DNA of 64,000 bases from a virus, in the IMG/VR virus record IMGVR_UViG_3300022674_000045, positions 37,628 through 101,627 of that record; one strand, written 5' to 3'. The position numbers and the translations under genes are program-made. Shown piece by piece: positions 19,640 to 63,388 of this stretch. Within the stretch, counting starts at the first letter, position 1; every line of letters begins with the position of its first letter. Under the pieces are notes generated by a model. The model saw only the letters and a program-made list of their open reading frames with translations. It made no database searches and was not told the origin of the DNA.

Positions 19640-19894
19640 TTATTCTCCTATGGTTCCAAATTTATTAACAAGAAATTCACCTATTTCATAGAAATGTTGT
19701 TTCACCTTGTCTGAAATAATTCGATCTAAGTCTGGCATCAATTCTCGAGCCACAATTCTTATATCATCAATTGCAAGGTCTATTAATCTTTCTCGTAGAG
19801 CTTTATCAATAAGTTTAACAATTTCTTGTTCGAGCATTGAATGTTGTTCTTCTTCCATAATGTCTTTAGGAAATAATATCTTTTTCTCTATCAT
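19640..19894 (-). CDS. Hypothetical protein
   Basis: 84-aa helical ORF directly upstream of beta'. Confidence 0.6.
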   Translation of the reverse strand: MIEKKILFPKDIMEEEQHSMLEQEIVKLIDKALRERLIDLAIDDIRIVARELMPDLDRIISDKVKQHFYEIGEFLVNKFGTIGE

Positions 19895-20099
19895 TACATT
19901 TCCCTTTTCCTGATATTTTCTCTTTTGCTTTTATTGCATATTTGTCTGCAACATCAGAGAAAACATCTTTTGTTCGCTCTACAAGAGCATCAAATATATC
20001 TCTTGAAGCAGATTTTACTGCTTTTGTTAATTCATCAACAACCCCACAAGCTTTCTCTGTGAGTTGTTCATCCGTTAGTCTCTTATTGTCGTTTGCCAT
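19866..20099 (-). CDS. Hypothetical protein
   Basis: 77-aa amphipathic helical ORF with SD. Confidence 0.55.
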   Translation of the reverse strand: MANDNKRLTDEQLTEKACGVVDELTKAVKSASRDIFDALVERTKDVFSDVADKYAIKAKEKISGKGKCNDREKDIIS

Positions 20100-20443
20100 G
20101 CTCCTATCACCTCTTGTTTCCTGTATTCTATTTCATCCCAAGGTGTAAAGTAACAATCATCTAAATTAAAGCAACATAGCATCGTTGAAATCATCTTCAA
20201 TGTATTTTCGTTTAATTCTAACTCCCTTAATTTATTTGGAATACAAAATTCACCTGTACCTGGATCAGCATTTGGATGTGGATTATTTAAAAATATATTA
20301 TCTATTTTTCCATCTACTGTTTGAATTTTATATCCGCGAATAACAAACTTTGGATCTAATTTTAATATTTCATGAATTTGATTTCTAAAAATTAACTTGT
20401 AAGGAGTATGAACATTTCTGATTGTTTCAGTTTTTATGTTCAT
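20075..20443 (-). CDS. Mini E2 (UBC-fold)-like protein
   Basis: PHPNADPGTGEFCIP matches the E2 HPN-x5-G-x2-C active-site signature; coupled to the upstream ThiF gene. Confidence 0.6.
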   Translation of the reverse strand: MNIKTETIRNVHTPYKLIFRNQIHEILKLDPKFVIRGYKIQTVDGKIDNIFLNNPHPNADPGTGEFCIPNKLRELELNENTLKMISTMLCCFNLDDCYFTPWDEIEYRKQEVIGAWQTTIRD

Positions 20444-21303
20444 TATGCAGCTCCTGTTTCAGGTATCAATTCAATAAAATATTTTCCATCCGTTTGATTT
20501 AAGGCAACCACAAAATTGTTAAATTGACATTGGGTTGCAACGGCTCTCGATAGATTGATTATTATATCCCCACTTGTTCTTAAGGAATTTTTTGGGATTG
20601 AAAACTCTGACATTGGGAATAAACTACTCCCAACAAACACATCTACATCAGCTTGTTTATTTGCTTGTAGAATTGGAACTATTTTTTCCGGAAGGTTAAC
20701 AAATTTTTCTTCATTATCCGGATCTTCATATACAATATCATATGAGCAACTGTCAAGATGTTTTACATGATCCAACTCATATTTTTGAATAGATTGATCT
20801 TTTATGAGTTTTGAAATTGTATCATTATAGACCAACATTAATATTAGACTAGCTGCGTATCTCAAATCTTCTTTTGTTAATTCTGTTAGATACTTGCCCT
20901 CTGATTTGACTCTATACTCAACATTTTTTCTACAATCCACCATAAGATATCTTGAAGAAATATAAAGTCTTGCACTGATTTCTTTTAATCTGTCATATGT
21001 GAAATCTCTGCAATCCAAAACTAAATCACATTTTGGGATTTTAGTTTTTCCTTCAATATATTTCTCATTAAAACTGATTATTGTAACATCAGGATTTTTA
21101 CGAGAAATAATTTCATCTAGGGCGTCTGTCTTTTTCAAACCAACATCAATCTGTCGATATATGGAGTTTTTGAGGTTTTTTGATTCAACTGTATCGTGGT
21201 CTATAACTATTAGAGTTTCAAGAGTTTCAAGATTCGAAACAGCGTTGGCAACAAACCCTCCAAGGGTTCCAATGCCAATTACTGCGATTGATTTATATAC
21301 CAC
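20443..21303 (-). CDS. ThiF/E1-like adenylyltransferase (second copy) with C-terminal extra domain
   Basis: VIGIGTLGG, IDHDTVESKNL, DVGLKK and LVLDCRD motifs. Confidence 0.85.
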   Translation of the reverse strand: MVYKSIAVIGIGTLGGFVANAVSNLETLETLIVIDHDTVESKNLKNSIYRQIDVGLKKTDALDEIISRKNPDVTIISFNEKYIEGKTKIPKCDLVLDCRDFTYDRLKEISARLYISSRYLMVDCRKNVEYRVKSEGKYLTELTKEDLRYAASLILMLVYNDTISKLIKDQSIQKYELDHVKHLDSCSYDIVYEDPDNEEKFVNLPEKIVPILQANKQADVDVFVGSSLFPMSEFSIPKNSLRTSGDIIINLSRAVATQCQFNNFVVALNQTDGKYFIELIPETGAA

Positions 21304-21370: not shown

Positions 21371-21952
21371 TTATGCTACAATATCTTGCAATTCTATTAG
21401 TTCAAAATCTTTTTTCTTACTATAAGTTCTGACAAACTCAATCTCTGTCGGACCAACAGGTTCTGGTCTGTATTGAGCTTTATATTTAAAATTTTTGTTC
21501 GCTATTTCAACAGGGTATGACAACGGTATTTCATATAAATATTTCTTTATATATTTATTACCTTCAAGCATCTGCATTTGTATGGGAGTATTTGGGTCAA
21601 TTGCCCTAAGCTCAGATACAATTGTTTGTCTAAAAATTGCATCATCTCGCTCATTTCTTATTTTCATCTCCCTCTTTACAAACTCATCTTGACGGCCTTT
21701 ACCATTTATTTTATAGAAATTTTCTTTTCGTTTAAGGGATTTAATAGCACGTCCAAAAGATTTGTTTTTCCCCTTTAAAATATTGAATGAATCTAATAGC
21801 GAACAGATTGAAATTCCTCTTGCTTCAATCCTACCTGCTTCAGAATTGAATAACAAACATACTGTCATTGCATTGCTCATGATTGGAGTTTTTACATTAT
21901 AGAAATTAATTCTATCAACTCCATGTATATCCAAGAAATTTTTATTTAACAT
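21371..21952 (-). CDS. Hypothetical protein
   Basis: 193 aa; ARGISICSLLDSFN..GKNK..GRA resembles a phage family; lies inside the Ub-like cluster. Confidence 0.65.
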   Translation of the reverse strand: MLNKNFLDIHGVDRINFYNVKTPIMSNAMTVCLLFNSEAGRIEARGISICSLLDSFNILKGKNKSFGRAIKSLKRKENFYKINGKGRQDEFVKREMKIRNERDDAIFRQTIVSELRAIDPNTPIQMQMLEGNKYIKKYLYEIPLSYPVEIANKNFKYKAQYRPEPVGPTEIEFVRTYSKKKDFELIELQDIVA

Positions 21953-21972: not shown

Positions 21973-21990
21973 GGGGGTCCGAAGACCCCC
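21973..21990 (-). promoter_or_regulatory. C(UUCG)G tetraloop hairpin 3' of the Ubl gene
   Basis: GGGGGTC-TTCG-GACCCCC on minus strand with no U-tract. Confidence 0.6.
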
Positions 21991-22006: not shown

Positions 22007-22486
22007 CTAGCAACCCTTTTTGCCTGCGGGTTTCAGGAACTCAAGGTTGTCACCTTGCTTCAACACATAATCACCGCCAACGTCTTTGCCGCTGACCAGA
22101 CCGGTGGAAAGTTTGTCCACGTTCAGGACTTCCCGAAGGAACTCGCCCACCTGTTTCACACTACGACCCACGACTGGGAAGTTACCGGAAGAGGCACCGC
22201 ATGAAACATGAATGGTTGTGGTTGTGCGGCTTCCAAATTCACCGCTTGGTTTGGTGATAACGCTGCGACCTGTAAATTCAACACCAGCAATAGCACCAGT
22301 GCCTGTAGCAGGAGCCGCTTTGGTGATACTAACGGCCGAACGACCGAACTGACTAAGGATGGACGCAATCACGTCTTCCTTCGGACGTTTGGTGACTCCA
22401 ACAATACCCAACTCATCGACACACATACGTTTCAACTCTTTAGAGGTCTTCGCTTCCAATTCTTCTCTGGTAAAGTATGTACCCAT
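22007..22486 (-). CDS. Ubiquitin-like (beta-grasp) protein with N-terminal HeH/Rho-N-like domain
   Basis: Start MGTYF at 22486 after AAGGAG; C-terminal YVLKQGDNLEFLKPAGKKGC resembles prokaryotic Ub/PRTRC-C GxKG tails; GC-richer codons. Confidence 0.75.
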   Translation of the reverse strand: MGTYFTREELEAKTSKELKRMCVDELGIVGVTKRPKEDVIASILSQFGRSAVSITKAAPATGTGAIAGVEFTGRSVITKPSGEFGSRTTTTIHVSCGASSGNFPVVGRSVKQVGEFLREVLNVDKLSTGLVSGKDVGGDYVLKQGDNLEFLKPAGKKGC

Positions 22487-22507
22487 GTTACAATTCTCCT
22501 TTTTCAC

Positions 22508-23191
22508 TTAGTTGATTGCTCTAATTTTAGAGCTTGCGTTCATTGACAGAATATCAAAATAGATTTCTGATCTTTCATAGGACTCTTTAACTACTGCGTT
22601 ATAAAAAGTCCAACACATGATTGTTGCGACCCCCAAATTTGTAAAATATAGCTGGGGGTCAGAGTTAGCTAATTCTTCACATGACATCTCATTTGGTAAC
22701 TTGTCGGTTGGATTTGCAATCTCAGGATGGTATCTGCACAAATCAGGTGTAAGGTCTTTTCCTTCCTTACGAACATACAATTGTACATTTCCATCAGTAA
22801 ATTCATTTCCTCCGGAGATCAAAACAACATTTTTTAATTCTTTACAATAATTCCCTACTATCATCCGGGTCTTATGATTGTCAACGCCCATAAACACAAT
22901 ATCGCCTTCTAGAATAACTTCCGAAATGTTTTCCGGAGTTACATATTCTTCAAAGGCCTCCAACCTCAATTTAGGATACTTCATCTGGAGCTCACCGGCT
23001 TTAATATCAGCTTTATTCCCGAGTCTAACAAACTCTTGTCTTTCATAATTTTTTGCTTCGTATTTGTCTCCATCTACAAGCAAGATATCAGCTGATAAAT
23101 CATTTGAATAATTTAGAAATCGGCACAATCTTTCTATAAGGATTGAACCGACCCCGCCGAGCCCTATCACAACAATACCCATTTTATTCAT
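22508..23191 (-). CDS. ThiF/E1-like activating enzyme
   Basis: VIGLGGVG, LVDGD..NYERQ, NKA, GVDNHKTR and SCEE (candidate catalytic Cys). Confidence 0.9.
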   Translation of the reverse strand: MNKMGIVVIGLGGVGSILIERLCRFLNYSNDLSADILLVDGDKYEAKNYERQEFVRLGNKADIKAGELQMKYPKLRLEAFEEYVTPENISEVILEGDIVFMGVDNHKTRMIVGNYCKELKNVVLISGGNEFTDGNVQLYVRKEGKDLTPDLCRYHPEIANPTDKLPNEMSCEELANSDPQLYFTNLGVATIMCWTFYNAVVKESYERSEIYFDILSMNASSKIRAIN

Positions 23192-23193
23192 TG

Positions 23194-24873
23194 TTACTTC
23201 TCCTTCCCAAACACACGTTTAAACATTGCAAATAATGTATCTTCCCGTTTTTGAGCAGAGGGTGGTTCCGGGATTGGTTTGCTTGCTCCATTTGGTTCAG
23301 GAATTCTTTCAATAGTCTGATCGGATTTTATCGCCTCTTGAAGAGCTACACGATTAATCTCTTCAGTTTCCGCTGATAAATATTCACCTGAGTCAGTTCT
23401 ACTCTGTTCAATCAGTTGTGCTTCTTGTGAATAGCAGGCACTTCCCCCACGTATTTCATCCGGTGGGCTGTCGATCAGTGAATAACAGAACGGGCATTGT
23501 TTCTCATCAGCAAAACGATGAAAACTATTTCCGCAAGATGGACATGTAATAAAAGCTGATGGTGGTCTATAACCATCTTCTGGTTTAAGTGGTGAATCGT
23601 CTTCCTTGGTGTAATGATTTGGAAGTTCATCTTCATTTACTAAACTCAAATATTCATCGGTTTTACAATTTGGACATACTGGCAACATAAGAGCGTCTGT
23701 ATTATCCACGACGATTTGTTTACATTTATCACATTTATAAACTTCTGTTTCGTCAAAGTCGTCCTCTGATTGTTCTGCCAGGAATTTATGACCTCTGAAT
23801 ACACATGTCTTGCAGGGAAAGAACTCATCGTCTGCGCCATCGAATACCACATCATGTTTTGGAAACTCAATAGGTTTAACTTTTACGCCCACATTAAATG
23901 GACTGGCTGCTCTATTATCCATTCCTGGAAGTGGCAGCTGTTTTTGAGTTGGAGTTGTTCTGGCAGGAGCTGTATATCTTCCTGCTTGGTTCCACAATGA
24001 GGCATCGAAATTTCGACCCCATCCTGGACTCTGACTTCTATGTTGACCATAAACTCCATACCCATAGTTGTATCCGTAATTATTATATTGATATTGATAT
24101 GTGCCTTTTTCAACCATTCCCATCCACTCGGATGGAACTTTATGATACTTTTCGGATACATTAACCACATAGCGTTTGTCATATCTTCTATAAGAATATG
24201 AAAACTGATTGGTTGCTTCTTTAACTTCTTCCATCTTGCCATTGATCCATCTATAGACACGTCTGGTTGGCCTCTGCTCCACTTCATCAATGTCTTTTGT
24301 TTTGATCAATCGCTCTACATAGTCTTCTGGTTCGACAACAAATCTATGACCATTGGCAACAATTGAAGCTGTAATGCTAACCTCATCGTTATTGACATTA
24401 CCAACGGTGATATGTAATCCATCAAAATGTTCTTCATCTTTATCATCCGTTCCTGAATGAAATGCTGACATGCTGGCATGACTATGAATTGTGCCAACCA
24501 TTGTCATTCCTTCTATGGTAATAGCTTTGTTATAATCACATGCTGCACCTGTCACTTTTTGATGCGGGGGAACAATTTTATAAACTCTTTTTGTTTCATC
24601 ATAAAATAAAAGGACAATTGATTCCCCATAATATTCTTTATATACCTCTCTGAAAAATGCAACAACTCTAGCAAATTGCCCGCCAGGAATCTTTTTAATG
24701 TTCATACGGGCCATCTTTTCAACACTCTCCAAAATGGAAATATTCTGAACTGGAGCGATACTTTCCATAATTCCCATTTTCTTCTTTAGAAAAATCCCCT
24801 CTTTCGCTACGATATAACATATATCATCATCCGGGATGGGGGAAGTCCCATCATTCACATGAATCTTGAACAT
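23194..24873 (-). CDS. JAB/MPN+ metallo-isopeptidase with C-terminal Zn ribbons
   Basis: E..GTIHSHASMSAFHSGTD JAMM motif; several CxxC pairs; start MFKIH at 24873 after AGGAG. Confidence 0.88.
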   Translation of the reverse strand: MFKIHVNDGTSPIPDDDICYIVAKEGIFLKKKMGIMESIAPVQNISILESVEKMARMNIKKIPGGQFARVVAFFREVYKEYYGESIVLLFYDETKRVYKIVPPHQKVTGAACDYNKAITIEGMTMVGTIHSHASMSAFHSGTDDKDEEHFDGLHITVGNVNNDEVSITASIVANGHRFVVEPEDYVERLIKTKDIDEVEQRPTRRVYRWINGKMEEVKEATNQFSYSYRRYDKRYVVNVSEKYHKVPSEWMGMVEKGTYQYQYNNYGYNYGYGVYGQHRSQSPGWGRNFDASLWNQAGRYTAPARTTPTQKQLPLPGMDNRAASPFNVGVKVKPIEFPKHDVVFDGADDEFFPCKTCVFRGHKFLAEQSEDDFDETEVYKCDKCKQIVVDNTDALMLPVCPNCKTDEYLSLVNEDELPNHYTKEDDSPLKPEDGYRPPSAFITCPSCGNSFHRFADEKQCPFCYSLIDSPPDEIRGGSACYSQEAQLIEQSRTDSGEYLSAETEEINRVALQEAIKSDQTIERIPEPNGASKPIPEPPSAQKREDTLFAMFKRVFGKEK

Positions 24874-27487
24874 GAAGGAAACTCCTCTCTTCTTGTAAAA
24901 ATTGAAGTTGTGATAATGAATTTTCAATAAACAATCCATGGAAATTAGGAAATGCCCATGTGGCTTCCATTTTAGATTGCTCTGTTGGACTTATTCTTGG
25001 ATTTGGAATACAATCCAATACTGTGTGGTTCTTTACATAATTGTCTATTGTATATGTTTCTGGATACGATGTGTAATATCCAAGAGACATCATTCTTGGG
25101 GTTTTGCTTTCATTAGTTCTTATAACTAACCACCCAAATGAATTTTGATAATCCCCACCAACACCTGTTAAAATATCACCAGGTTGTGGTTTAATCTTTG
25201 TAATGTCAATTGGAGCGTGGGCTAATGTTGCCCATTTTTTCGACTTCATCCCCACTCTTTTAAATTTCTCCATCATATCACTATACCACAATGTACAACA
25301 ATTTGAGCATAGAACTAATGGTTCATCTCCACCCGTATCTGTGATAAATCCAATAATAATATTTACATCTTTCTTTGGGAAATGTGGAATATAACCATGT
25401 TGTGCAATAATCTTAGTTCCAGCTGTAACTCTATCGAATTTGTTGGTTATCTTTCTAATTTTGCCAACACTTATTATTGATGAACCTCTACTACCTGATA
25501 TACCCTTCACATATTCAACTTGTGTTAAAGCTCCATCTTTATCACTTAACACAAAATTCAATGTGCCTTTAGCTTCATCTATCGTGAATGCTGTGATTGT
25601 TCTTACCATCAGCATATTAATTGGGTTATTCCAATCAGAAAATACGACCTTATCTCCAAGATCAAACCTAATGTTGAGATCAAAACTTTCAACTTCAAAT
25701 GTAAGGCCATCATTTTTGATTAGATGTTCTGCTACTTGTTTAATATCGGGGGTTGATGTAGAGTGATTATTATCATAAACAACTCCGCCTGGTGTTGCCC
25801 AACAATAACTCTCAACTCCAGCATGCCTCATATCAGTCTGAGATAATAACTTTCTCCCAACACGAAATACTTGTGGTAATGGTCTGATTTCATCTGCTGT
25901 AAATAATCTTCTTTGCTTTCGACCAAGCATTGACATTCTTCTAGATGAACTATCTCGTACCTGTAAATTATATCGTTGATCTTGGGGTGAGTACGATTTG
26001 TCTGTTCCCACAAATGAAAATTTCAAAGTTCCATCTTCACGAACATCAAGACCAGTATATTGAGCATTACTTCCAGCATGATATGGCCCAGAGTTTACTG
26101 AACGGATAATAACGTAATTTTCTTCTTTGTTCAATATAATATTATCATATTTCGGAGTATCTAAATTAAAAAGTTCTCCTTCTGTATTTTCAAGAATATA
26201 AAATGAATTACCTATTCTTGCTTCCGTAACTCCATCTCTTGCATTTCTAATGAAATGAACTTTTCTGTAACTTGGATTTCCATACCCATCTTTGACGACT
26301 ATAATATCGCCTTCTTTAATAACTGTCCCATTTTTCATTGTGCCTTGTTCATCATATCTTAATTTTTTGGCACCTGCATGGATGAAATCCTTAACTTTTG
26401 TATTAAACTTAACTTTGATTAATTTTTCATTATCTAACTGAAGTCTTATTTCACGAATAACATCTGTTTCTGTAAAACCAATGAAAGAATCAATATAGGC
26501 TATATGTTTACCCCAAGGAATAGGATCTCCAACATGGACATAGAACGTACTGTCTAAATAAATTCCTTGTGCAATATCATAATATAATCTGATCTTTTTT
26601 CTTGATCTTGAATAAGGAAGAGCGTCCTTTCCTGTATCTCCAGGTGATGTAAAAAGATGCTCTAATTCTTTATACCCAAGATGTGTCATTGGCATATTAT
26701 GATGTTGATCTTTCAAATGCTGGAGAGTTTGGTATATATTTTTATCCATTTTGATCCAATCAACACTATAGATAAACATTGGATCAATTTGTGATAATGC
26801 TTGCCATCCTAGATATGTGCTAACTCCAGGAACATCTTTATATGCTGTATAATTATATGTATAGTCGGAATTAAATGTTGCTGACCAAAACACCATAATA
26901 GTGTTTTCAATTGCATCATGCAATGTATTGAAATCTCCATGTGCTTTATCACCAAAACAAATATGTTGGTTGCTGCTAATATTCATCAATGGAGCTTTCA
27001 ATAGATAGTCGCTAAGGCCTGCCAATCTAGCATTTCTTAAATATGATTGACCAGCTATAAGATGATTCACTTCATCAAACATCAAAATGAAGATAACATA
27101 CGGAAATGCAAGATTAAATTTAAACGGAGCATTAGTGAAATCAGAATAATATTTTGTGTCTATGTTCCATTCTTCAATTTTTCCTTCTGATTTCAATTTT
27201 GCTATTTCTTGCTCCATCGGATAACCAACACTAATGGTTCTATATGCTGGTGGTTCCTCAATAACAACAATATATCCATTTCTTAATTTTTCAATATATC
27301 TACAATTTGGAGGTAACACAGATGCTCCACCAAAACCTGAAGTGATCTTTTGTAAATAATTTTTTGTTAAATGGACACTTCTTCTTACTTTTGGGGTTGA
27401 TGGTTGATCCAACCCCTCAGGATATTCTGAATGTAATAATTGAACGTACTTTGGGTTAATTCTTATTTCCTCTACAGTTTCAGGCAT
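24851..27487 (-). CDS. Prokaryotic E2 family D (PRTRC-B-like) domain fused to a long beta-rich C-terminal region
   Basis: AFPYVIF..APLMNI..HICFG..FWSATFN pattern; 878 aa; adjacent to JAB, E1 and Ubl genes. Confidence 0.7.
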   Translation of the reverse strand: MPETVEEIRINPKYVQLLHSEYPEGLDQPSTPKVRRSVHLTKNYLQKITSGFGGASVLPPNCRYIEKLRNGYIVVIEEPPAYRTISVGYPMEQEIAKLKSEGKIEEWNIDTKYYSDFTNAPFKFNLAFPYVIFILMFDEVNHLIAGQSYLRNARLAGLSDYLLKAPLMNISSNQHICFGDKAHGDFNTLHDAIENTIMVFWSATFNSDYTYNYTAYKDVPGVSTYLGWQALSQIDPMFIYSVDWIKMDKNIYQTLQHLKDQHHNMPMTHLGYKELEHLFTSPGDTGKDALPYSRSRKKIRLYYDIAQGIYLDSTFYVHVGDPIPWGKHIAYIDSFIGFTETDVIREIRLQLDNEKLIKVKFNTKVKDFIHAGAKKLRYDEQGTMKNGTVIKEGDIIVVKDGYGNPSYRKVHFIRNARDGVTEARIGNSFYILENTEGELFNLDTPKYDNIILNKEENYVIIRSVNSGPYHAGSNAQYTGLDVREDGTLKFSFVGTDKSYSPQDQRYNLQVRDSSSRRMSMLGRKQRRLFTADEIRPLPQVFRVGRKLLSQTDMRHAGVESYCWATPGGVVYDNNHSTSTPDIKQVAEHLIKNDGLTFEVESFDLNIRFDLGDKVVFSDWNNPINMLMVRTITAFTIDEAKGTLNFVLSDKDGALTQVEYVKGISGSRGSSIISVGKIRKITNKFDRVTAGTKIIAQHGYIPHFPKKDVNIIIGFITDTGGDEPLVLCSNCCTLWYSDMMEKFKRVGMKSKKWATLAHAPIDITKIKPQPGDILTGVGGDYQNSFGWLVIRTNESKTPRMMSLGYYTSYPETYTIDNYVKNHTVLDCIPNPRISPTEQSKMEATWAFPNFHGLFIENSLSQLQFLQEERSFLHVQDSCE

Positions 27488-27858
27488 TATTCACCTCTTA
27501 AAAATTTGTATTGTTTCGCATAATGAGTTAATATCTTTTCTGGACGATCATCTGGAATCTCCCATACTTTTTGTCTCTTTAATGATGAATCGTCTTTTGA
27601 TATTTGGGCAATTGACATGGAATAAAGAATTGTAAGATATAGATCAGCCGTTTCTCTCTCTAGTGTTAGAAAGGCGATCTCTTTTTTAGTTCGACCAGGA
27701 ACTTCTAATGCGAGGAAAATATTAGGACCCTTCGGAAGCTGTTTAATATGTGTAATGTTGGTCTGTTCCTCCTTTTGAATCTGGTCGCACAGCTCCCTTA
27801 CTTTTTGTGTTTTATCGTCTGTTTTTATTTCTGCTAAAATGCTTTGGAGTATTGTCAA
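27487..27858 (-). CDS. Hypothetical protein
   Basis: 123 aa; coupled to E2 gene. Confidence 0.65.
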   Translation of the reverse strand: MTILQSILAEIKTDDKTQKVRELCDQIQKEEQTNITHIKQLPKGPNIFLALEVPGRTKKEIAFLTLERETADLYLTILYSMSIAQISKDDSSLKRQKVWEIPDDRPEKILTHYAKQYKFLRGE

Positions 27859-28200: not shown

Positions 28201-29253
28201 TTATTTATCCTCCCTCTTATCAATATGAACTAAATCATCTTCCCCATCGCCTGATTCATCAATATACTTGCTCATCATTAAACATGAATGATTGCAGAGT
28301 TTACACATTCTGTTTTTATCGGTTTTGATTGATTCTAAGAATGCCTTGGATACTCTTTCAGGATCCTCTAAATCAAATAGATTCTCCAAACTAAATATCT
28401 GTGGTGTTACTGATCCACGAATCCTCAAACATAATCGAATGCTAGCATCTGCATCAACAGTTATATTGTGAATACCATTCTCTAATTGGCAATCGAAATT
28501 AGATGGTAATGTATCATACATCATTGGAAGTAAGACGTCGGCCATATGAATTAATAGAGTATCATCGTCCATCATGTTATTGAATAACATTGCCAATTCA
28601 AATGTTGGTTTCACTAAAGGGGAATAATCTGTAATATTTGAAAAATCATAATATATGTTTTTTGCGATATCTACGAATGTAATATCACTATATATTCCTG
28701 CATCGCTTAACTCTCCCACAAGATCATATAGGAGGTGTTTGTTATGATTCATGACTGTGATCTCTGCAACAACATCTTTTACGAAACCACTGTCCTGCAT
28801 CATTTTTAATCTCTTTAAACCTTCAACACTCTTTTTAACACGATCTTCACTTGAACCAATTTCATTAAATACAGGATCTACTGAACTTGTAAACCCTTCA
28901 AGATAATCGGTCTCTCTCATTAGCTTTTTAATCAAGGGTTGAATTTCCGGAGTGTTGTTGCTAATGATCGTATAGAAGATTTTGTTTTCATTACAATAAT
29001 TGATTATTATTGATAAATCTTTTCTCAATAACGGCTCTCCGCCATAGAATATATGAAATGCATTTGGGTTATGAATTTTAAATGCTCTAAGACCAGCTAT
29101 AACCATTTCTGTTGACATTTCATTTTTAATATAATGTGCCATGTCAGGATAACTACCTGGTTTGTTCGGGTAATTCTTGACTATGGCACAATATTCACAT
29201 TTAAGATTACATCGTCTTGTCAATATCCAATTGACTATTCGGATTTTACTCAT
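28201..29253 (-). CDS. Radical SAM enzyme with C-terminal SPASM/twitch-like Cys cluster
   Basis: CNLKCEYC, GGEPLL; C-terminal C..LC..CKLCNHSC; likely start MSKIR. Confidence 0.88.
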   Translation of the reverse strand: MSKIRIVNWILTRRCNLKCEYCAIVKNYPNKPGSYPDMAHYIKNEMSTEMVIAGLRAFKIHNPNAFHIFYGGEPLLRKDLSIIINYCNENKIFYTIISNNTPEIQPLIKKLMRETDYLEGFTSSVDPVFNEIGSSEDRVKKSVEGLKRLKMMQDSGFVKDVVAEITVMNHNKHLLYDLVGELSDAGIYSDITFVDIAKNIYYDFSNITDYSPLVKPTFELAMLFNNMMDDDTLLIHMADVLLPMMYDTLPSNFDCQLENGIHNITVDADASIRLCLRIRGSVTPQIFSLENLFDLEDPERVSKAFLESIKTDKNRMCKLCNHSCLMMSKYIDESGDGEDDLVHIDKREDK

Positions 29254-29618
29254 TAGGCTTGCTCCCATACACGAAGTATTCCACCTTGATCTTTTATTTC
29301 TTGCTCAAAAGTTCTCCACTCTCTATGCTGATTAGCTTCTGCAAAAACGGCTATCTTTCCGTCTAATATTACTTTCAGGCAGTCTTCATACTGTTTTGAA
29401 GTTAGGCGTGCCCACTCTTTCGGTCCACGAGCAAGATCAATCCAATCACAAGGATCTGCTTGGGTATAAGATATAAGATGTTCTTTTGTTTTGAAGCTTC
29501 TTAATCTTTCCCATTTTACAAACTTCCATTCCAAATGATCTCTACAAATCGGGTGGTCTGCTTCAAATACAAAACAAATAGATGAACTGTTTGTAACGAA
29601 ATCAAATTTGATTTTCAT
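29253..29618 (-). CDS. DFVTNSS-motif protein 1
   Basis: N-terminus MKIKFDFVTNSSS; stop overlaps radical SAM start. Confidence 0.75.
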   Translation of the reverse strand: MKIKFDFVTNSSSICFVFEADHPICRDHLEWKFVKWERLRSFKTKEHLISYTQADPCDWIDLARGPKEWARLTSKQYEDCLKVILDGKIAVFAEANQHREWRTFEQEIKDQGGILRVWEQA

Positions 29619-30001
29619 TATGAAAGTTCCTCAGCAACCATATCAATATACTTTGATCTTTCAAATTCATCACATGCTTGATAATCAACTGCACAATATA
29701 CCGCAACGTGCTCTTCATCTACAACCTCTTTTATTTTCAAATATAACTCTTTATCAAGGTTATGGAATCGAAGGCCTCCCATTGGTTTAGATGCCCAATC
29801 ATATGGACGCCCATTTGTCCAGTCTTGAAGTTCTTGTAAATTATAGAAAACCCGATATATTCCAACACCTTCATTTTGATAATTAGGATTTTCATTTAAT
29901 TTAGCTACGTATTCTTCAAATTGCGGAACTTCATCTGGTGGGAGACTCATAATGTAACAAGCCGATGAACTGTTTGTTACAAAATCAGATTTTATCCTCA
30001 T
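29618..30001 (-). CDS. DFVTNSS-motif protein 2
   Basis: N-terminus MRIKSDFVTNSSS. Confidence 0.75.
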   Translation of the reverse strand: MRIKSDFVTNSSSACYIMSLPPDEVPQFEEYVAKLNENPNYQNEGVGIYRVFYNLQELQDWTNGRPYDWASKPMGGLRFHNLDKELYLKIKEVVDEEHVAVYCAVDYQACDEFERSKYIDMVAEELS

Positions 30002-51344: not shown

Positions 51345-54300
51345 TTAATCCCTCGTTAACATTAATGAAATAAAATATGAGTTTAATAAATCTTTGGCCG
51401 GAGAAACCTTGGCTTCACGATATCCGGCATTTCCATTTTTAATAATATCTGCTAAAATTTCCTCTTTTGTTACATAATCATCTGATAGAGGTCCCATAAA
51501 TTCAGAAAGTACTGCTGGACAATTATAGGATATAAATGAATATGTATCAAGCTCTCCCAATCTTTGACCACCTTCATTTCGTTTACCCGCTGTTGGTTGG
51601 CTTGTTTTTCCAGAGACAGGGCCAGTTGATCGTCCATAGATTTTTGCATCACTCATATGTTCAAGTTTTGCAATATACATATACCCAACAGGAACAGCTT
51701 TGGCTGTTTTGGTATTAAACTCTGGTAAAGTCAATTTATATGCAGTTTTTAATCCCAAAACATTTAATGATGTTTTAATATCATTATGACTTGGAGCTTT
51801 AAATGGGGGTATAATAATTGGATAAAAACCTGTTTTCTTAACTTGTGCCACAAGTTCATTATATCTAGCTGTTGATAATCTGCTTAAGTTAGCAATCAAT
51901 CTTGTTGTTGCTTTTTTGTTTGGAGATTTATCAAGAGGCCCATAAACTTTTTTGATCAATTCTATTGCTTTTGGTTTTGTAAGAGTTGGAATTAATCTTC
52001 CCAACTCTCTTGCCATAAGACCACAATACATTTCATATAATTGACCAATATTCATTCTACCCAACAACCCTAATGGGTTTAATACAATATCAACTCTTTC
52101 ACCGTTTGGAAGTCGCGGCATTAATTCATCTTTTTCAACTAATGATATAATACCCTTATTTCCATAGCGATTGCATAGTTTATCTCCGAATCCAACTCTC
52201 AATTCCTGTTCGATTCTAAATCTGATAAGAACTCCTTTAACAGAAACTCCCTTCACCATAAATTTATCTTTCGGTGGTTTAGGATATTTTTTGTTTGTTC
52301 TATTTATCAATTCTTTCAACTCTGGAAATTTATTATCTTCCACATTTGAGAATACTTGAATATCAACTATTCTCCCTCCCGGACTCTTTTTAATATATTG
52401 TCCAGCAAAAAGATCTGTTGTTTCGTCATCCTCAAACCCAATAATGTCTTCAATATCACCAAATGTTTTTCTTAGTAAAGGTTGTCCTTTTTCAATAGGT
52501 TCTCCAATCTTTGCTATATATAACAACCTATCATTTTCTGCTAACATTACTTCTTCTTCAACACCATGTAAAGATGTCAACATATCGTTGTTTGCTACTC
52601 TTTCATTAATAACAGCACCATCTTCAAAATTAAACCCCTTATACGGCATTAGAGCTGCTAATAATGGCCTTCCCAATGAGATTGATCCTTGTGACATACA
52701 AGCGCCTTCTGCAATAACATCACCTTCTTTAACATTTTGACCAGGTTTAACAATAGCATTAAAAACACTTAATGTATTTTTACCTGAACCTGAACGAAGG
52801 TGTACAGGCGATATATCAACCACATCAGACCGTCTTTGACCGCATTGTACTTTAATTGCATCCTTTGTTACACTTAATATCTTTCCTGTGCATGGAGCGC
52901 GTTTTACGAAGTTCTCTGATAATACATCAGTTAATATTGATTCATAACCAGATTGAACAACAGGAGGTTGTGGATTCTTCAACGGCAACATTTGTTTAGC
53001 TTGATTTGCAAGCATGATAACACGAGCACCATCTGTATTTTCTAAAAATGGAACCATACATGTCGAAGTTGAAAGCATTCCAGACCCTTCTTTATCATCT
53101 AATTGTTTTGTGCCAAACAATCCACGAGATGATGAAATAAGAGCATCAATCGTTAGTTGTTGAACAATTCCAATGTTTCCACCTTCAGGTGTATCCAATG
53201 GGTCAATATTTCCAAAATATGTTGGGTGTATATTACGAGCTACAGCATGTATAGCTCTTTTATCAGGAATACCACCAACCTTTTTACCGACTGGGGAAAT
53301 TCTTGTCATTGTTGACATTTCTTCAATTGGATTTGCATATTCCATATCAACAACCAACTCGGTCATTAAGAAATCACTTAATACTTTTGTTTGAGGAACT
53401 TCAAATTGAGCTTCTGTATTTCCTGATAATACTTGACTTCTATATGTAGTATATGCTGCGAGAATCTGTTTTTGTGCAAGGTGAACAAGAACCTCTGAGT
53501 TTCTAATACGTTGATTAGATAGATCATTTCTTTCAATCACAAATCCTTGTACAACTTTTTCCGTCATATACTGCATAATCAAATCTAATGTAGTGGGTAA
53601 CTGTTTTGTTTTTAATACTTGTTTAACAACAGGATCAACAATATTTTGTAGGTTTTGACTGATCAAAAATGGAGCATTGATTCGACCAGTTAATTGAATT
53701 ATTAGATCCTCAAAATACTCGGTCGTTGGAAATTCTTTTTCAATTTTATATTGCTCAGGTTTCCCATGCATAAAACCTTTACATAATTGTTTTTTAAGAT
53801 CTGTGTCAACATTTGTAAATATCACATATTGATCGTTTTTAATTTTACCAAAAAATTCAACGTTATCAGGCTTACTAGAAACAATATCATATGTTATTTT
53901 ATATTGTTTACAGGTTTCTCTAAAACCAAAACTAAATGCTAATAAAAAGAATAGAGGCATTTTATATGACATAAATGATTCAAGATATTTTACACGTCTT
54001 AAATCTTTTACATAAATTCTAAATACTGAATATGAACTTTCAAATCTTGAATGACCAGGCTTTGGGAATGTTATTGGATCCTGTACAATTTGATTTGTAA
54101 GGCATTTTTGTTTTCCGTTTAGTCGGAACACTCCAGTATCAGGATCAATTCTTGGAAGTTCAATTTTTACATTGTGCGTATTTCCAAAATCATCTTTTAA
54201 AACAATCGTTGCAATATTTAGATCGGACTTCATAATTTCACCTGGTCTTCCTGGTTTAGGTGCAATAGTAAAATTCTCTATTCTTAGAGGAATATCTTTT

Positions 54301-55430
54301 GTTTCCAATACCTTAAATGAGTTCGTCAGATCTTTTTTCAAATTTGTTTGAAAATCCACCTGTCTCTTTTTAAATATATGACCTGGAGATTTTCCATCTG
54401 TCATTGCAGTAGGATCATATACTGAAATAGTTTCATCAGTTGAAAGAGCAACTGCCTTTTCTGGTTGCAGTAAATCACCTGCCAAACTTTTATCAACAGC
54501 TTGTAATGCTTTTAATTTATTTTTTGATGAAATATTTTTAGATAGTAATTTTGATCTTTCCAAATCCCCACTTGTTTTATAAAAGATTGATGCAGTTGCA
54601 ACATCTTTAATATCATCCACTGTTGCGTCACCAGAAACTATTTTCTCTGCTTGATCTGGATCCGTTGATAAAAATGATTGAATAGCCGCTTTAATTTTCC
54701 CTTTATTTTCAGGTTCAAGATGTTTATCAAGAGCTTTTACGACAACATTGGCGGCTTTGTTGCTTTCTTCTTCTTGTTCTTCTTCTGTAGGAACTCCTTT
54801 TAATGTACGCATATAGTTAACTATTCTCTGAAATTTAAATTCTTTATCTTTAACCAATAGTCTATATGCTGGGTTTCCATGTGACATTGTATTTAACATC
54901 ATAGCATCAAATGGAAAATTTCCATCTTTCATATCTCTAATAAAAGGAAATATTTTTCTATTAACAAATGAATTTACATCTTTATTGAGATCAACTGCAT
55001 ATAAAAGAATTTTCTGATAGTTTCCAGGAAACTGGTTCGCTGCTGTCATTAAAGCATTTTTCAAAAGAAATCCGGCTCTTTGACGATAATTAGTTGGCTT
55101 ATACATTACATCAATAGCGTTGACATATTGTGATAAATCAAGTATAGCATTCTTTCCGGCTGGAACTTTTTGTCTTATTGAATATGGAATTAAATTCAAT
55201 GAACGATATAATCTCACAAGATCAGGTGTTAATCTGGTTCTTGGAATTGTTGTCATTGGAACAGAAACAACTCTAAAATCTACTTTCATTATATTCATCT
55301 TACTATATTCTTCTATAAGATTTGTGTTTTCGGGAAAGTATATCAATAGAAATGGTTCTTTTGTATTAATGGGGAACCTTACCCCATTGACAACATGAGT
55401 ATATTGTCTCCAACTTTTAAATTGAATCAT
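51345..55430 (-). CDS. Multisubunit RNA polymerase beta-like subunit, set 2 (probably virion RNAP), with ~380-aa N-terminal extension
   Basis: DPLDTPEGGNIG, GDKLCNRYGNKGIIS, NPLGLLGRMNIGQ and GGQRLGELD motifs. Confidence 0.93.
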   Translation of the reverse strand: MIQFKSWRQYTHVVNGVRFPINTKEPFLLIYFPENTNLIEEYSKMNIMKVDFRVVSVPMTTIPRTRLTPDLVRLYRSLNLIPYSIRQKVPAGKNAILDLSQYVNAIDVMYKPTNYRQRAGFLLKNALMTAANQFPGNYQKILLYAVDLNKDVNSFVNRKIFPFIRDMKDGNFPFDAMMLNTMSHGNPAYRLLVKDKEFKFQRIVNYMRTLKGVPTEEEQEEESNKAANVVVKALDKHLEPENKGKIKAAIQSFLSTDPDQAEKIVSGDATVDDIKDVATASIFYKTSGDLERSKLLSKNISSKNKLKALQAVDKSLAGDLLQPEKAVALSTDETISVYDPTAMTDGKSPGHIFKKRQVDFQTNLKKDLTNSFKVLETKDIPLRIENFTIAPKPGRPGEIMKSDLNIATIVLKDDFGNTHNVKIELPRIDPDTGVFRLNGKQKCLTNQIVQDPITFPKPGHSRFESSYSVFRIYVKDLRRVKYLESFMSYKMPLFFLLAFSFGFRETCKQYKITYDIVSSKPDNVEFFGKIKNDQYVIFTNVDTDLKKQLCKGFMHGKPEQYKIEKEFPTTEYFEDLIIQLTGRINAPFLISQNLQNIVDPVVKQVLKTKQLPTTLDLIMQYMTEKVVQGFVIERNDLSNQRIRNSEVLVHLAQKQILAAYTTYRSQVLSGNTEAQFEVPQTKVLSDFLMTELVVDMEYANPIEEMSTMTRISPVGKKVGGIPDKRAIHAVARNIHPTYFGNIDPLDTPEGGNIGIVQQLTIDALISSSRGLFGTKQLDDKEGSGMLSTSTCMVPFLENTDGARVIMLANQAKQMLPLKNPQPPVVQSGYESILTDVLSENFVKRAPCTGKILSVTKDAIKVQCGQRRSDVVDISPVHLRSGSGKNTLSVFNAIVKPGQNVKEGDVIAEGACMSQGSISLGRPLLAALMPYKGFNFEDGAVINERVANNDMLTSLHGVEEEVMLAENDRLLYIAKIGEPIEKGQPLLRKTFGDIEDIIGFEDDETTDLFAGQYIKKSPGGRIVDIQVFSNVEDNKFPELKELINRTNKKYPKPPKDKFMVKGVSVKGVLIRFRIEQELRVGFGDKLCNRYGNKGIISLVEKDELMPRLPNGERVDIVLNPLGLLGRMNIGQLYEMYCGLMARELGRLIPTLTKPKAIELIKKVYGPLDKSPNKKATTRLIANLSRLSTARYNELVAQVKKTGFYPIIIPPFKAPSHNDIKTSLNVLGLKTAYKLTLPEFNTKTAKAVPVGYMYIAKLEHMSDAKIYGRSTGPVSGKTSQPTAGKRNEGGQRLGELDTYSFISYNCPAVLSEFMGPLSDDYVTKEEILADIIKNGNAGYREAKVSPAKDLLNSYFISLMLTRD

Positions 55431-55447
55431 TATAATTCTCCGTCAAT

Positions 55448-58400
55448 TTATCGCTTTTTAATCTCCACTAAATTGCCTGTCAACACTCTTTCAAGAATGC
55501 TTTCTTCACCAACATCTTCAGTAACGAGACCGGTCTTAATGGCTTCATTAATATTTTCAAATGCCAACCCTTGAATGAAACTTGATTTGAATACAATTTT
55601 CTTGATGTTTATCATTACAGGATCCCATTTTTTACCAAGTCTTGCTGGAAGGCTTTGATTAGTTCTATCTCTTAAAGCTTGGGATAATAGTATTTCAAGG
55701 TGAACAGAATCAATGTCTCTTAGAGGCCCATATATTGCAAATAGTTTTAAGAATAAATGGTCTGCATCTTTGTATATTTCACGACCTCCCAATAATCTTT
55801 TTACATAATTGATTTGTGCTTTTGTATCATCTGTTTGCATTGGAACTTCTAGAATTGTACTGTCTTTGGTAAATACTAATTTTAAAGTATCTTTTCCTTC
55901 ATAGGAAAAATCATAAGCTTTTAGTATTGCTGGGTAGTCCAATATAATATTAAATATAGCATCATCAAATTCAACTTTACATACTAACGATTTAACATAG
56001 ATTTCTGTTTCATCATCACCCCAAACTAAATCATCTGGTAGTGGATAATCATCAAGTGATATTGACATTACCATATCTTTTTTAGCAAATAATTCAGTAC
56101 TATTTTGACCCAAACATCTAGATACAATGTCTTGTGTTGTTAATGGATCATTTTGGACAATATCATATTTAATATTACGTTCTTGAATCTTTACTGCTCC
56201 ACCCGTATGAAAGGTTTTCATGATTGTTTGAGTTCCAGCTTCACCTACAAGCTGTGCCGCAAGAACACCAGCATATGGAGTTCTATGTCTTAATAATAAA
56301 TCTCCGTAACAGGTATGACAAATCTTTTGAGATTCACATAACATCGGTGATCTTAAATTTACAACATCACCTATTTTTGTTCCTGCTGGATCAAATTTTT
56401 CAATCTTATTTCCTTTTAAAACATATCGTCCGTTGAATCTTCCTTGCATTTCTTTATTCATTCTGAATCTTAACACACGATTTGTTTTACAATCTTTTAA
56501 ATTATGATCAATTTCAACACTATTTAAAACATATGCTAATTGTCTTGAAAAATATCCTGTATCAGCTGTATTCAAAACACGGTCACTAATACCCTTTCTT
56601 GCACCTGAGGACGCTTCAAAATATTCGGTGTTAGTCAATCCATCAGCAAATGATCCTTCAATTGGAGGTATAACTTTTCCTTGTGGATCAGCGATCAATC
56701 CTTTTGCAACCAAAATTTGCATTGGTTGCGTCCATCCTTTTCCGGCCCCTGATTCAACCAAATCATACAACCCTGTATTTTTTAAATGCTCAACTAATAA
56801 TTTTTGTGCTTGTTTTAATAATGCTGCAGTTTCCTCGGTTGATGCATTTTTCAATTTCTTTTTTAATGCAAGGATTGAATCTGGTAATTGAATATCATCA
56901 AGTGATAGTGTAGGTGCCATTATTGTTGCAAATTTAAAAGCAATAGTTTTTAATGCAGAAAATGTATTAACCGCTTGTTCCTGACCATATTTTCTTAGAA
57001 TTACTGGAATTAAACTGTTTGCAAATTTCTTTGTCACAACTTGCTCTATAAATGGGAATGAAGTCGGAAAGGCACTATTAAATATTGCCTTTCCCATTGT
57101 TGTAACATGACCACGATATTTTACTGGAATATATGGGTCAGTTGCGGATTCTAAATCTTTATCAAATACTTGTATTGGAGATTGTGCCTTCTTTACATCT
57201 TTTGTTAATGTGTATAAACCAGCTGCCATCTCTTTTGATAATTCAAATGTTATTGCTGAATCACTATCTCCGGCTTCTCCCTTCATCATTTTATTTTTAA
57301 CATCCTCTTGTGCTTCATTTGTAATTGGATGATAAATGGCCATTGTATCACCATCAAAGTCAGCATTGAACCCACCAACCTGTAATGTACACAACTGAAT
57401 AGAGTTTCCTGAAACTAAAATTGGTTTAAACCCACGAACTGATTCTGGTCTAAGTGCTGGGTCACGTTTCAATAAAACGTATCTTCCCATCATTGCAACT
57501 TCTGCGGCATCCCATATTATATTATATAAATCTTTAGGGATGTTATCATCGTTTTTAATTCCCTTGAATATTAGTTTTATACTATCAATGGATAATTCAA
57601 ATCCTGTATATGATTTTACAGAATCTTCTAGTTTCTTTTGATCAACTTTCCCAGAATGAAACAATCTATAAATAATAAACGGTTCAAATAAACTAACGGC
57701 TAATCTTAGTGGAACCCCAACTTCATTTACTTTTAATGATGGACCTGGAGTAATAACAGCACGGCCAGTAAAATCAGCACGTTTTGCTAGCAAACTTGAA
57801 CGTATAATACCGCTTTTCTTTTGAATTAGCTTGCGAATAAAATTATCATGCTCTATAACAGCTTTTTGTAACTGATAATTTAAAAGATCAAATAATGGTC
57901 CCTTTCCAGTACTTTTAATCTGATATGAACGTCTCAACAATGCCCAATAATATTCATTCAAAGGATTTACAATCCACATTCCTTTGGCATCTTGATATGC
58001 AGTTCTTTGCTCTGGTGGAATGACTGGGATCATATCAATAAATAAATTTCCTTCTTTGGATGCCTGCTCAATCTTTTTAATGAATTTTTCTCTTGTGTCT
58101 GTTCCACCTCTGAATTTTATTTTTGGAATAGCCTGCATAAATTCAGAGATTCCTGTAACTCCATTTGGATCTTCTTGTAGTGATCCCGCATCAGTGACGC
58201 TAAAAGAGCTTTCAGTTGATAAATACTTTTCAATTTTTCTATCTAATTGAATCAAAAGCAAATATGCAGATGGATGAATTACTTGAGCATTCAAATTAAT
58301 ATATGAAAAAGTTTTCTTTCTTTCCGGAGACTCCTCCGGTCCAAAGATGATTTCGGAGAATACTCCTTCTGGATGCCACTCTCCTGGTTTTGAAAGCATC

Positions 58401-62297: not shown

Positions 62298-62315
62298 CCT
62301 TTCAATAATATAAGC

Positions 62316-62379
62316 AAAAAAATAAAAGGGGTGAGAGTCGCAGAGACAGCTAAGCGACTCTCCACCCTCACCCCTTTTT
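62316..62379 (-). terminator. Intrinsic terminator with compound hairpin
   Basis: AAAAGGGGTG..GAGAGTCGC pairs with GCGACTCTC-ACCCCTTTT, then ATTTTTTT. Confidence 0.7.
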
Positions 62380-62411
62380 ATTTTGTTCTAACTAACTCGA
62401 CGGACGTCTAA

Positions 62412-63290: not shown

Positions 63291-63327
63291 TTGTAAATCC
63301 TTTCTTTTAATTAATGAATGTTGTGAG

Positions 63328-63357
63328 ATGCCCCAACCTCGACGTTGAGATTGGGGC
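63328..63357 (-). promoter_or_regulatory. Intergenic hairpin
   Basis: TGCCCCAATCTC / GAGGTTGGGGCA inverted repeat. Confidence 0.5.
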
Positions 63358-63388
63358 ACATGTTAAACGACCAGGTAACGATTAAAGA

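Follow-up and report, generated by a model that had tools for sequence, protein, structure and literature searches.

What use does a virus have for a complete set of ubiquitin-like conjugation enzymes? The question is raised by a locus in a 64,000-nt stretch of viral DNA, here called the window, which comprises bases 37628-101627 of the linear, 101,627-bp IMG/VR virus record IMGVR_UViG_3300022674_000045. At window positions 22007-27487 four adjoining genes encode an E2-type carrier, a JAB/JAMM metallopeptidase, an E1-type adenylating enzyme and a ubiquitin-like protein (Ubl). Biochemical proof of Ubl conjugation in prokaryotes is limited to Bil, type II CBASS and Bub, of which the first two protect the cell from phages (PMC11601603). 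Here the full kit is owned by the virus and is never lost, which suggests that tagging is a step in the programme of the phage itself. From the comparative data we consider it probable that the locus encodes a phage-owned ubiquitin-like conjugation pathway serving a core phage function.

The sequence-only reading of the window had proposed four contiguous open reading frames (ORFs) of phage origin for an E2 of family D with a cysteine in the motif HICFG, a JAMM peptidase, a ThiF-type E1 and a beta-grasp protein ending in GKKG-C. These assignments are upheld by the results below, with the starts of the JAB and Ubl genes revised:

24851..27487, minus strand: E2-type carrier, 878 amino acids (aa); UBC-like domain at about residues 55-245, then about seven small beta-barrels

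23194..24873, minus strand: JAB/JAMM metallopeptidase, 559 aa; PRTRC_A-like N-terminal half, variable linker, zinc ribbons

22508..23191, minus strand: E1, 227 aa; ThiF-type adenylating enzyme (ThiF, E 1.9e-19)

22007..22486, minus strand: Ubl, 159 aa; HeH/Rho-N-like head, Ala/Thr/Gly-rich variable linker, ThiS/TGS-like beta-grasp domain of about 80 residues

The JAB gene most likely starts at the ATG at 24873 and not at 24939, since the former lies behind a GAGGAG site and the latter would place the JAMM motif 22 residues further in than in most orthologues. It overlaps the 3' end of the E2 gene by 23 nt. For the Ubl gene, alignment and ribosome-binding site favour the ATG at 22486 behind AAGGAG. 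The genes of the block are tightly packed, and their spacing indicates translational coupling by short overlaps. They are real genes and not chance ORFs, judging from the at least 203 clusters of full-length homologues (about 850-890 aa) of the 878-aa protein and from the gene order, which is kept in more than 100 viral contigs.

All genes of the window are located on the minus strand. The products include a large terminase, a tape-measure-like protein, a topoisomerase II, a helicase, SbcCD and two separate sets of multisubunit RNA polymerase (RNAP) genes. The terminase, the tape-measure-like protein and the two RNAP sets identify the source, on gene content, as a jumbo tailed phage. CheckV estimates a completeness of 33%, so that the record is a fragment of a genome of ~300 kb. 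In a collection of cultured phages the closest RNAP beta' is only ~28-31% identical; hence none of the phages in that collection belongs to the clade. INPHARED gave no match to the cassette (megablast) or to the 878-aa protein (tblastn).

The distribution of the locus was followed in two censuses. The first comprises 35 viral contigs that were found through an E2 alignment query and is thus conditioned on the cassette; a query of viral contigs with a single protein had given no match. The second comprises 80 loci chosen by RNAP beta' alone (55-83% beta' identity), of which only those with enough upstream flank were counted. All four genes are present throughout this second set (E2 57/57, JAB 60/60, E1 64/64, Ubl 65/65), as is a second E1-like gene, ThiF2 (72/72), while a small E2-like gene, s122, is detectable in 62 of 76 loci. 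Across relatives, E1 identity ranges from 51 to 79% and is close to that of RNAP beta'. Among cellular genomes (representatives of 185,579 prokaryotic species), relatives occur on three contigs of metagenome-assembled genomes (MAGs) only, one of which equals an IMG/VR contig of the clade in length. Samples that contain relatives include ones from soil and rhizosphere. Because the genes are found at every beta'-selected locus with enough flank, the block is, by this comparison, a fixed, clade-wide core module of the phage lineage with no cellular home.

Binning of MAGs has placed contigs of the clade (L038, L040, P0110) under the labels Thermoplasmatales (two cases), Thorarchaeota and, in one case, 'uncultured bacterium'. 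These labels may reflect mis-binning or may hint at an archaeal host.

The 878-aa protein matches Prok-E2_D (PF14460) at residues 161-217 with an E value of 1.3e-4 and 22.2 bits when the whole protein is searched. A six-frame genome search gives 25.2 bits, which is borderline but above the gathering cut-off of 25 bits. PF14460 is precomputed on 11 of 120 listed homologues, and a match to PRTRC_B is weak (E 0.0078). In an alignment of 94 homologues, reaching down to 26% identity, N169 and C177 are invariant together with 25 other columns. C177 is the cysteine of HICFG, and the active-site loop has the spacing N169-x7-C177. We take this to equal the distance at which the catalytic cysteine follows the HPN asparagine in canonical E2s (UbcH5 HPNINSNGSIC). 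The HPN histidine is absent from the loop, as has been noted for operon type 6d (Iyer, Burroughs and Aravind 2006, PMC1779556).

The structure of the 878-aa protein was predicted with AlphaFold2 (AF2) using the family alignment (mean predicted local distance difference test, pLDDT, 90.4). A VIA scan of 48,161 PDB representatives matches residues 55-241 to more than 25 E2/UEV structures over 110-125 residues, with a root mean square deviation of 4-5 A and Z scores of 4.4-5.3, a range that according to the tool can be commonplace (stated noise ceiling ~8). The order of elements in the model is that of a UBC domain, i.e. a four-strand meander, a loop and a long helix 2. C177 is located between strand E161-164 and helix H189-202, 13 residues past strand 4 and 12 before helix 2. 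Since the match list is almost purely E2, the element order is that of UBC and C177 sits in the appropriate position, the assignment of the N-terminal region as a UBC-like E2 domain is firm enough at the level of a predicted model.

The remaining ~600 aa form a string of small barrels in the model. In the VIA scan they match BAH, Tudor, chromo, SH3 and KOW-containing proteins, and Foldseek retrieves Spt5, tandem Tudor domains and UBE2O. We infer that with these barrels the protein may bring its own substrate-binding array. Inside one SH3-like barrel (residues ~683-754) there is another invariant cysteine, C727 (LVLCSNCC), which could be a metal ligand or a relay cysteine.

One relative, L029, carries a single in-frame TAA near the 5' end of its E2 homologue (position 2210) and a stop in the Ubl range too. 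The stops in L029 are probably due to a frameshift, a sequencing error or a decayed copy and not to recoding. An alternative genetic code, considered on account of in-frame stops in L029, L035 and L020, was rejected: two of the cases are true stops in over-long ranges and the one in L029 is the single internal TAA.

The E1 scores 70.2 bits against the ThiF cut-off of 28.1. Throughout 22 orthologues GxGGxG, DGD, K47-N48...R51-Q52, D104-N105, C171 (within EMSCEEL) and C193 are invariant. As the adenylation motifs are complete and invariant, the E1 should adenylate, with Cys171 as the candidate thioester cysteine. Its profile matches in the PDB include MoeB, UBA5, ThiF, Uba4 and BubCD.

The JAB matches Prok-JAB with an E value of 6e-6 and 26.6 bits, above the cut-off of 25. 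It carries HSHASMSAFHSGTD, which is an exact HxHx7SxxD zinc site, and the motif is found in 20 of 20 orthologues checked. The C-terminal part holds two to four CxxC...CxxC zinc ribbons in these 20 orthologues. A comparison of the JAB with PDB sequences gave no match.

The Ubl family matches several beta-grasp families in Pfam, namely TGS (26 of 28 members, best E 6.7e-5), ThiS (19 of 28, 3.2e-4) and Ub-Mut7C (16 of 28). Rho_N is matched by the head of 21 of the 28 (best E 1.9e-7). Against PDB sequences the Ubl gave only a weak match to the Rho N-terminus and a probably spurious one to the Dun1 FHA domain, and hhalign found no similarity between Ubl and ThiF2. The C-terminus reads EFLKPAGKKG followed by one Cys and the stop codon TAG. 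The Ubl thus has the marks of a beta-grasp modifier with a cap-protected C-terminal glycine, as far as sequence can tell.

The relatives allow this end to be interpreted. Among 67 distinct orthologue tails, 43 end at ...[KR]KG, 20 add Cys, one adds Arg and one Phe. The terminal glycine is invariant and the cap is C, R, F or none, with capped and uncapped forms among near and distant relatives alike. Since most tails stop at Gly in near and distant relatives, the mature end is predicted to be the glycine and the Cys an optional, dispensable cap, which fits trimming by the adjoining JAB. That the JAB removes the last Cys had been suggested from the window alone; the comparison now backs it, with the 43 Gly-ended tails, the 20 with an added Cys, the two with Arg or Phe and the poly-Ubl precursors of cultured phages all agreeing with such a step.

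These cultured phages were found in a search with the E1, which detects ThiF genes in the Bacillus phages vB_BauM_KLEB27-3, vB_BceM_WH1 and Edson and in the Vibrio phages D69, D181 and D148. The cassette of KLEB27-3 (OM634661) comprises gp199-gp194 (stretch L121, 718-6708), that of D69 (OZ195729) genes 0307-0301 (stretch L122, 2286-6843). In KLEB27-3, gp194 matches the E1 profile of the window clade (E 2.9e-29) and gp196 the E2 profile (E 2.4e-10; Prok-E2_D 2.7e-4). gp195 is annotated as 'PRTRC_A domain-containing' and shows the JAMM motif, so that the order is gp196 (E2), gp195 (JAB), gp194 (E1). gp199 consists of four head-to-tail Prok_Ub units of 57 residues (E 5e-27), each ending in ...AGVKG, with a short tail after the last. 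D69 has the same gene order, and its 0307 consists of three units ending in ...TGTKG. Such poly-Ubl precursors would need cutting after the same ...KG, which independently supports trimming by the JAB; BilC, the JAB-type enzyme of Bil, provides a precedent (PMC10557695).

Both cassettes run Ubl, other genes, E2 (family D), JAB and E1. They resemble that of the window in this order of the enzymes, in the N-x7-C loop, in the JAMM motif and in the Ubl end (AGVKG or TGTKG versus AGKKG in the window). They differ from it by an E2 of only 229-255 aa without the barrel array, a JAB of 356 aa without zinc ribbons, and a Ubl that is a head-to-tail tetramer or trimer without HeH head and is encoded upstream of the enzymes. 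Profiles of ThiF2 and s122 found no match among the 10 (Bacillus phage) and six (Vibrio phage) translated cassette genes. In public records the parts are annotated as 'PRTRC_A domain-containing', 'ThiF family' or 'hypothetical', and under the phage name KLEB27-3 no paper was found. The KLEB27-3 and D69 cassettes offer a directly testable bench model.

Expression signals single out the Ubl gene. The GC content at third codon positions (GC3) is 0.49 for the Ubl versus 0.18-0.29 for the other block genes, with E1 at 0.34. In 31 of 32 relatives the Ubl likewise exceeds E1, JAB, ThiF2 and RNAP beta' in GC3. The gene is followed by a hairpin:

21973..21990, minus strand: GC-rich hairpin directly 3' of the Ubl stop; 7-bp stem, UUCG loop, no U-run in the window

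A strong hairpin is found within 60 nt past the Ubl stop in 34 of 34 relatives, with minimum free energies from -17 to -31 kcal/mol and z scores of -3.0 or lower, and the sequences differ. A U-run follows in five of the 34; most are without. The hairpin is probably a partial terminator or a 3' stabiliser that would raise Ubl output over that of the downstream genes. Strong ribosome-binding site, skewed codons and hairpin fit a Ubl made in excess of its enzymes.

The functional block exceeds 22007-27487. Upstream it extends to a 123-aa gene, downstream to the second E1-like gene and a mini-E2, s122; the content E2-JAB-E1-Ubl as first read is correct, while the latter two genes had been missed. 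The further genes are:

27487..27858, minus strand: u123, 123 aa; its stop overlaps the E2 start by 1 nt; found in 33 of 35 loci

21371..21952, minus strand: X193, 193 aa, variable; present in only 13 of 35 loci

20443..21303, minus strand: ThiF2, second E1-like protein, 286 aa; ThiF, E 1.7e-15; two genes downstream of the Ubl

20075..20443, minus strand: s122, minimal E2 of 122 aa; its start overlaps the ThiF2 stop by 1 nt

19640..20099, minus strand: two small overlapping genes, 77 and 84 aa, linking the block to RNAP beta'

The gene order common to the 35 viral contigs is SbcD, SbcC, small genes, radical SAM, WYL_2, u123, E2, JAB, E1, Ubl, (X193), ThiF2, s122, small genes, RNAP beta' and beta. 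Radical SAM and WYL_2 genes adjoin the cassette with gaps of 0-3 nt (window 28201-29268 and 29253-30001, minus strand).

ThiF2 retains GxGxxG, DxD, N43, K58 and D97. The RQ arginine finger is absent in all 22 orthologues, and ThiF2 thus lacks the full motif set of an active E1. Homology to the E1 extends over the Rossmann half (hhalign probability 94%), and ThiF2 matches Cap2 structures (E 1e-10). The C-terminus reads ...ELIPETGAA. Orthologue tails are nearly fixed, with G at -3, a small residue at -2 and a last A (rarely S or T); most sequences show TGAA, about nine GGA, and GSA also occurs. By its sequence this tail could be a fused, capped modifier-like tail or the mark of a partner subunit. 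A search of the ESM Atlas with the C-terminal part of ThiF2 found nothing.

The motif HPN...C of s122 has invariant H56 and C67 and near-invariant P57 and N58 (90 sequences of a family of 303 representative clusters). The AF2 model has a pLDDT of 94.9 and lacks helix 1 and helices 3-4 of the full UBC fold. E2 enzymes make up about 30 of the 34 best VIA matches (Z 3.3-4.9, 85-93 of 108 residues, 13-18% identity); the Foldseek list is almost all E2 but weak (E 0.065 or higher). At the sequence level, UQ_con (PF00179) matches one of the 90 members (E 0.0033) and not the s122 of the window, PDB sequences return chance-level rows only (E 0.5-0.9), and hhalign finds no similarity to the large E2 family. 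A lead from the ESM Atlas is given by viral clusters with Prok-E2_D on 11-23% of their members (score 0.86). From its model s122 looks like a minimal HPN-type E2. ThiF2 and s122 are probably a non-catalytic E1 partner plus a second carrier, or else a second branch.

The coupled gene u123 shows an invariant LER motif and a near-invariant C-terminus ...LRGE in the alignment. Pfam and PDB sequences gave no family match for u123, the PDB rows being at chance level (E 0.5-0.9). It may be either a partner of the large E2 or its substrate.

Two observations concern the window at large. The second, larger RNAP set is located at window 51345-58462 (minus strand), where a 1361-aa protein matches RNAP beta families and adjoins a 1004-aa ORF. 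The two RNAPs can be likened to the virion and non-virion RNAPs of phiKZ-like phages. Moreover, GC content is 0.48 at window 62001-64000 versus ~0.33 elsewhere, a region that covers two ORFs of 315 and 160 aa.

Taken together, the following course can be proposed for the conjugation pathway. The JAB would remove the cap and expose Gly158 of the 159-aa Ubl. The E1 would adenylate Gly158 and take over the Ubl as a thioester on Cys171. From there the Ubl would pass to Cys177 of the large E2, whose ~600-aa array of SH3/Tudor/KOW-like barrels would pick the target, making the protein an E2/E3 hybrid. An isopeptide bond on a target lysine would complete the mark, and the JAB would reverse it too. 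As targets we would guess DNA- or transcription-associated proteins of phage or host, because the Ubl head is of a nucleic-acid-binding type, the array is KOW/Tudor-like and the block has its fixed place beside RNAP.

Several points weigh against such a pathway. The sulfur-carrier enzymes MoeB, ThiF and Uba4 are among the nearest solved relatives of the E1. The Ubl of the window itself stays below every Pfam gathering score, and it ends in a single Gly after Lys-Lys, not in Gly-Gly. The E2 structural matches are middling, with Z about 5 for the 878-aa protein and at most 4.9 for s122, below the noise ceiling of ~8. RNA runs holding the window stretch were looked for and none is listed.

The genes could instead belong to a sulfur-carrier pathway, in which the Ubl would receive a C-terminal thiocarboxylate and give its sulfur to a nucleotide, tRNA or cofactor modification, the JAB would act like Mec+, and no protein would be conjugated. 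The beta-grasp domain is nearest to ThiS/TGS, the E1 has MoeB, ThiF and Uba4 among its profile matches and scores best with the ThiF/MoeB models of NCBIfam, the encoded Gly-Cys end resembles the CysO-Cys adduct, and the same closely spaced run of genes includes a radical SAM gene, three genes upstream. However, two E2-fold proteins with invariant cysteines, for which such a pathway has no use, are always present, whereas a scan of 17 neighbours found no rhodanese, cysteine desulfurase, ThiG, MoaE or TtuA-type partner. The E1 stays far under the cut-off of every ThiF/MoeB equivalog, and the Ubl has a head of nucleic-acid-binding type and a single Gly. Moreover the homologous cassettes encode poly-Ubl, a hallmark of a modifier rather than a carrier. 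We therefore regard a sulfur carrier as very unlikely. Still more improbable is a mere scaffold without thioester relay, in which E2-like, E1-like and beta-grasp folds would serve as non-catalytic modules of a replication or transcription complex and the JAB would only mature a precursor, in the manner of the Ubl- and JAB-fold proteins in lambda-type tail assembly. It would account for the barrels, protein- or nucleic-acid-binding in kind, that make up most of the 878-aa protein, for the degenerate ThiF2 and for SbcCD and RNAP as neighbours. But catalytic residues are invariant precisely where drift would be expected, i.e. C177 and N169 (94 sequences), the adenylation set and C171 of the E1, the JAMM motif (20/20) and the terminal Gly.

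A further purpose, offered in the sequence-only reading beside the tagging of host or phage proteins, is to counter Ubl-based host defence. The kit would then be an accessory that neutralises Bil, type II CBASS or Bub, e.g. by a JAB that strips the host Ubl off phage proteins or by a phage Ubl that blocks target lysines. Such a role agrees with the action in phage defence of those bacterial Ubl pathways that have been shown biochemically (PMC11601603), with the ability of JAB enzymes to reverse their marks (PMC10557695) and with a weak match of the E1 to the Cap2-type 'E1-E2' models of PADLOC (E 8e-7). The block, however, keeps its place and its set of genes in every relative down to 55% RNAP identity and is as conserved as RNAP itself, whereas anti-defence genes are usually patchy and fast-evolving. 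A lone deubiquitinase would be enough for stripping, yet the full E1/E2/Ubl set is kept, and the PADLOC models return nothing for JAB, E2 or Ubl. Since the module belongs to the invariant core and sits beside RNAP, counter-defence is the least favoured of the purposes offered, and we consider it unlikely by a clear measure.

A phage-owned conjugation pathway with a core function remains our preferred reading. It may be extended to a two-tier, eukaryote-like cascade, in which a heterodimeric E1 (the 227-aa protein with ThiF2), the HPN mini-E2 and the giant E2/E3 hybrid, docking by its KOW/Tudor-like array on transcription or nucleoid proteins, would covalently attach a DNA-binding HeH-Ubl to phage or host RNAP or to chromatin proteins as an obligatory step of infection. 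This extension is speculative and, in our estimate, rather doubtful. If true, a protein-tagging system would for the first time be shown as essential to a bacterial virus and not as directed against one.

How does the cassette relate to known systems? The nearest named family is PRTRC (TIGR03735 PRTRC_A, TIGR03736 PRTRC_ThiF, TIGR03737 PRTRC_B; Pfam Prok-JAB, Prok-E2_D and Prok_Ub), known from plasmids and integrative and conjugative elements and, to our knowledge, without published biochemistry. It is built from four corresponding parts, namely a JAB with an alpha+beta extension at its N-terminus, a family-D E2 with the Cys but without the HPN His, a ThiF-type E1 and a small beta-grasp protein. 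It is likewise carried by a mobile element, and it provides the best or only NCBIfam matches for JAB and E2. The designation PRTRC-like is thus adequate as to kinship but does not extend to family membership. The JAB scores 45.4 bits against the PRTRC_A cut-off of 101.8 (E 6.5e-12; residues 42-198 on model 29-187 of 192) and is homologous but outside the family. The E1 reaches 35.9 of 144.75 bits for PRTRC_ThiF (E 4.7e-9) and the E2 15.6 of 131.45 bits for PRTRC_B. PRTRC_C gave no match, the Ubl having no NCBIfam hit at E <= 0.1, and a Pfam scan of 17 neighbours found no ParB domain. The window differs by ~600 extra E2 residues of barrels, by zinc ribbons on the JAB, by the HeH head of the Ubl, by the added second E1-like gene and HPN mini-E2, and by its setting as a fixed core module of a jumbo phage. 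As every NCBIfam cut-off is missed and no ParB gene was found, the cassette is, by these scores, a new variant of the prokaryotic E1/E2/JAB/Ubl kind and not a member of PRTRC. We infer that the PRTRC cassette corresponds to operon type 6d of Iyer, Burroughs and Aravind 2006 (PMC1779556).

Bil (BilABCD) shares separate E1, E2, Ubl and JAB-type deubiquitinase genes with the window. BilC, the JAB, pre-processes BilA so that the C-terminal glycine is freed, and it cleaves the conjugates as well (PMC10557695); Bil Ubls occur with varied N-terminal domains (PMC11601603). In contrast to the phage-owned kit, Bil belongs to the cell, which it defends by tagging a phage tail protein. PADLOC 2.0.0 (2023), which may lack Bil models, gave no hit for JAB, E2 or Ubl, and no sequence link to Bil was seen. 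Type II CBASS with Cap2/Cap3 resembles the window in its E1 and E2 chemistry and in a JAB that trims and reverses. Here, however, E1 and E2 are separate genes, and the modifier is a folded beta-grasp protein and not the tail of an enzyme. A CD-NTase or other nucleotidyltransferase was not found among the scanned neighbours, which places the cassette outside the Cap2/Cap3 systems.

The pairs ThiS/MoaD-ThiF/MoeB and CysO-Mec+ have in common with the window a beta-grasp protein (ThiS/TGS matches) and an adenylating E1. In the Mycobacterium pathway the JAB Mec+ removes one C-terminal cysteine, that of CysO-Cys. The window differs from these carriers by its two E2-fold proteins and the single terminal Gly. 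With 46.7 bits for the best ThiF/MoeB equivalog against a cut-off of 275, and a tail of KKG, it falls outside the sulfur-carrier families.

For PDB entry 9EGC no relevant paper was found. A survey of 224 jumbo-phage genomes (PMC7824862) and a review of 2026 (PMC13282480) make no mention of a JAB, ThiF or Ubl system, and phrase searches of the literature, whose coverage leaves out most subscription journals, returned no description of such a phage cassette. Unusual in the cassette are an E2 that carries its own presumed substrate-binding array, a Ubl with a head of nucleic-acid-binding type and a degenerate E1 twin paired with an HPN-type mini-E2, the last recalling eukaryotic E1/E2 design.

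Two aspects are already known: records of cultured phages label two of the parts, and a preprint notes E1-like genes in viruses of Asgard archaea. The latter, the Nidhogg viruses of Helarchaeota, carry E1-like genes, in which the authors saw a connection with ubiquitin-type modification (Rambo et al. preprint, 10.1101/2021.07.29.454249). They resemble the phage of the window as tailed viruses of prokaryotes with ThiF/E1-like genes. In their case only the E1-like genes are reported, and the viruses are proposed to use E2 and Ubl of the host, whereas the phage of the window encodes the whole set.

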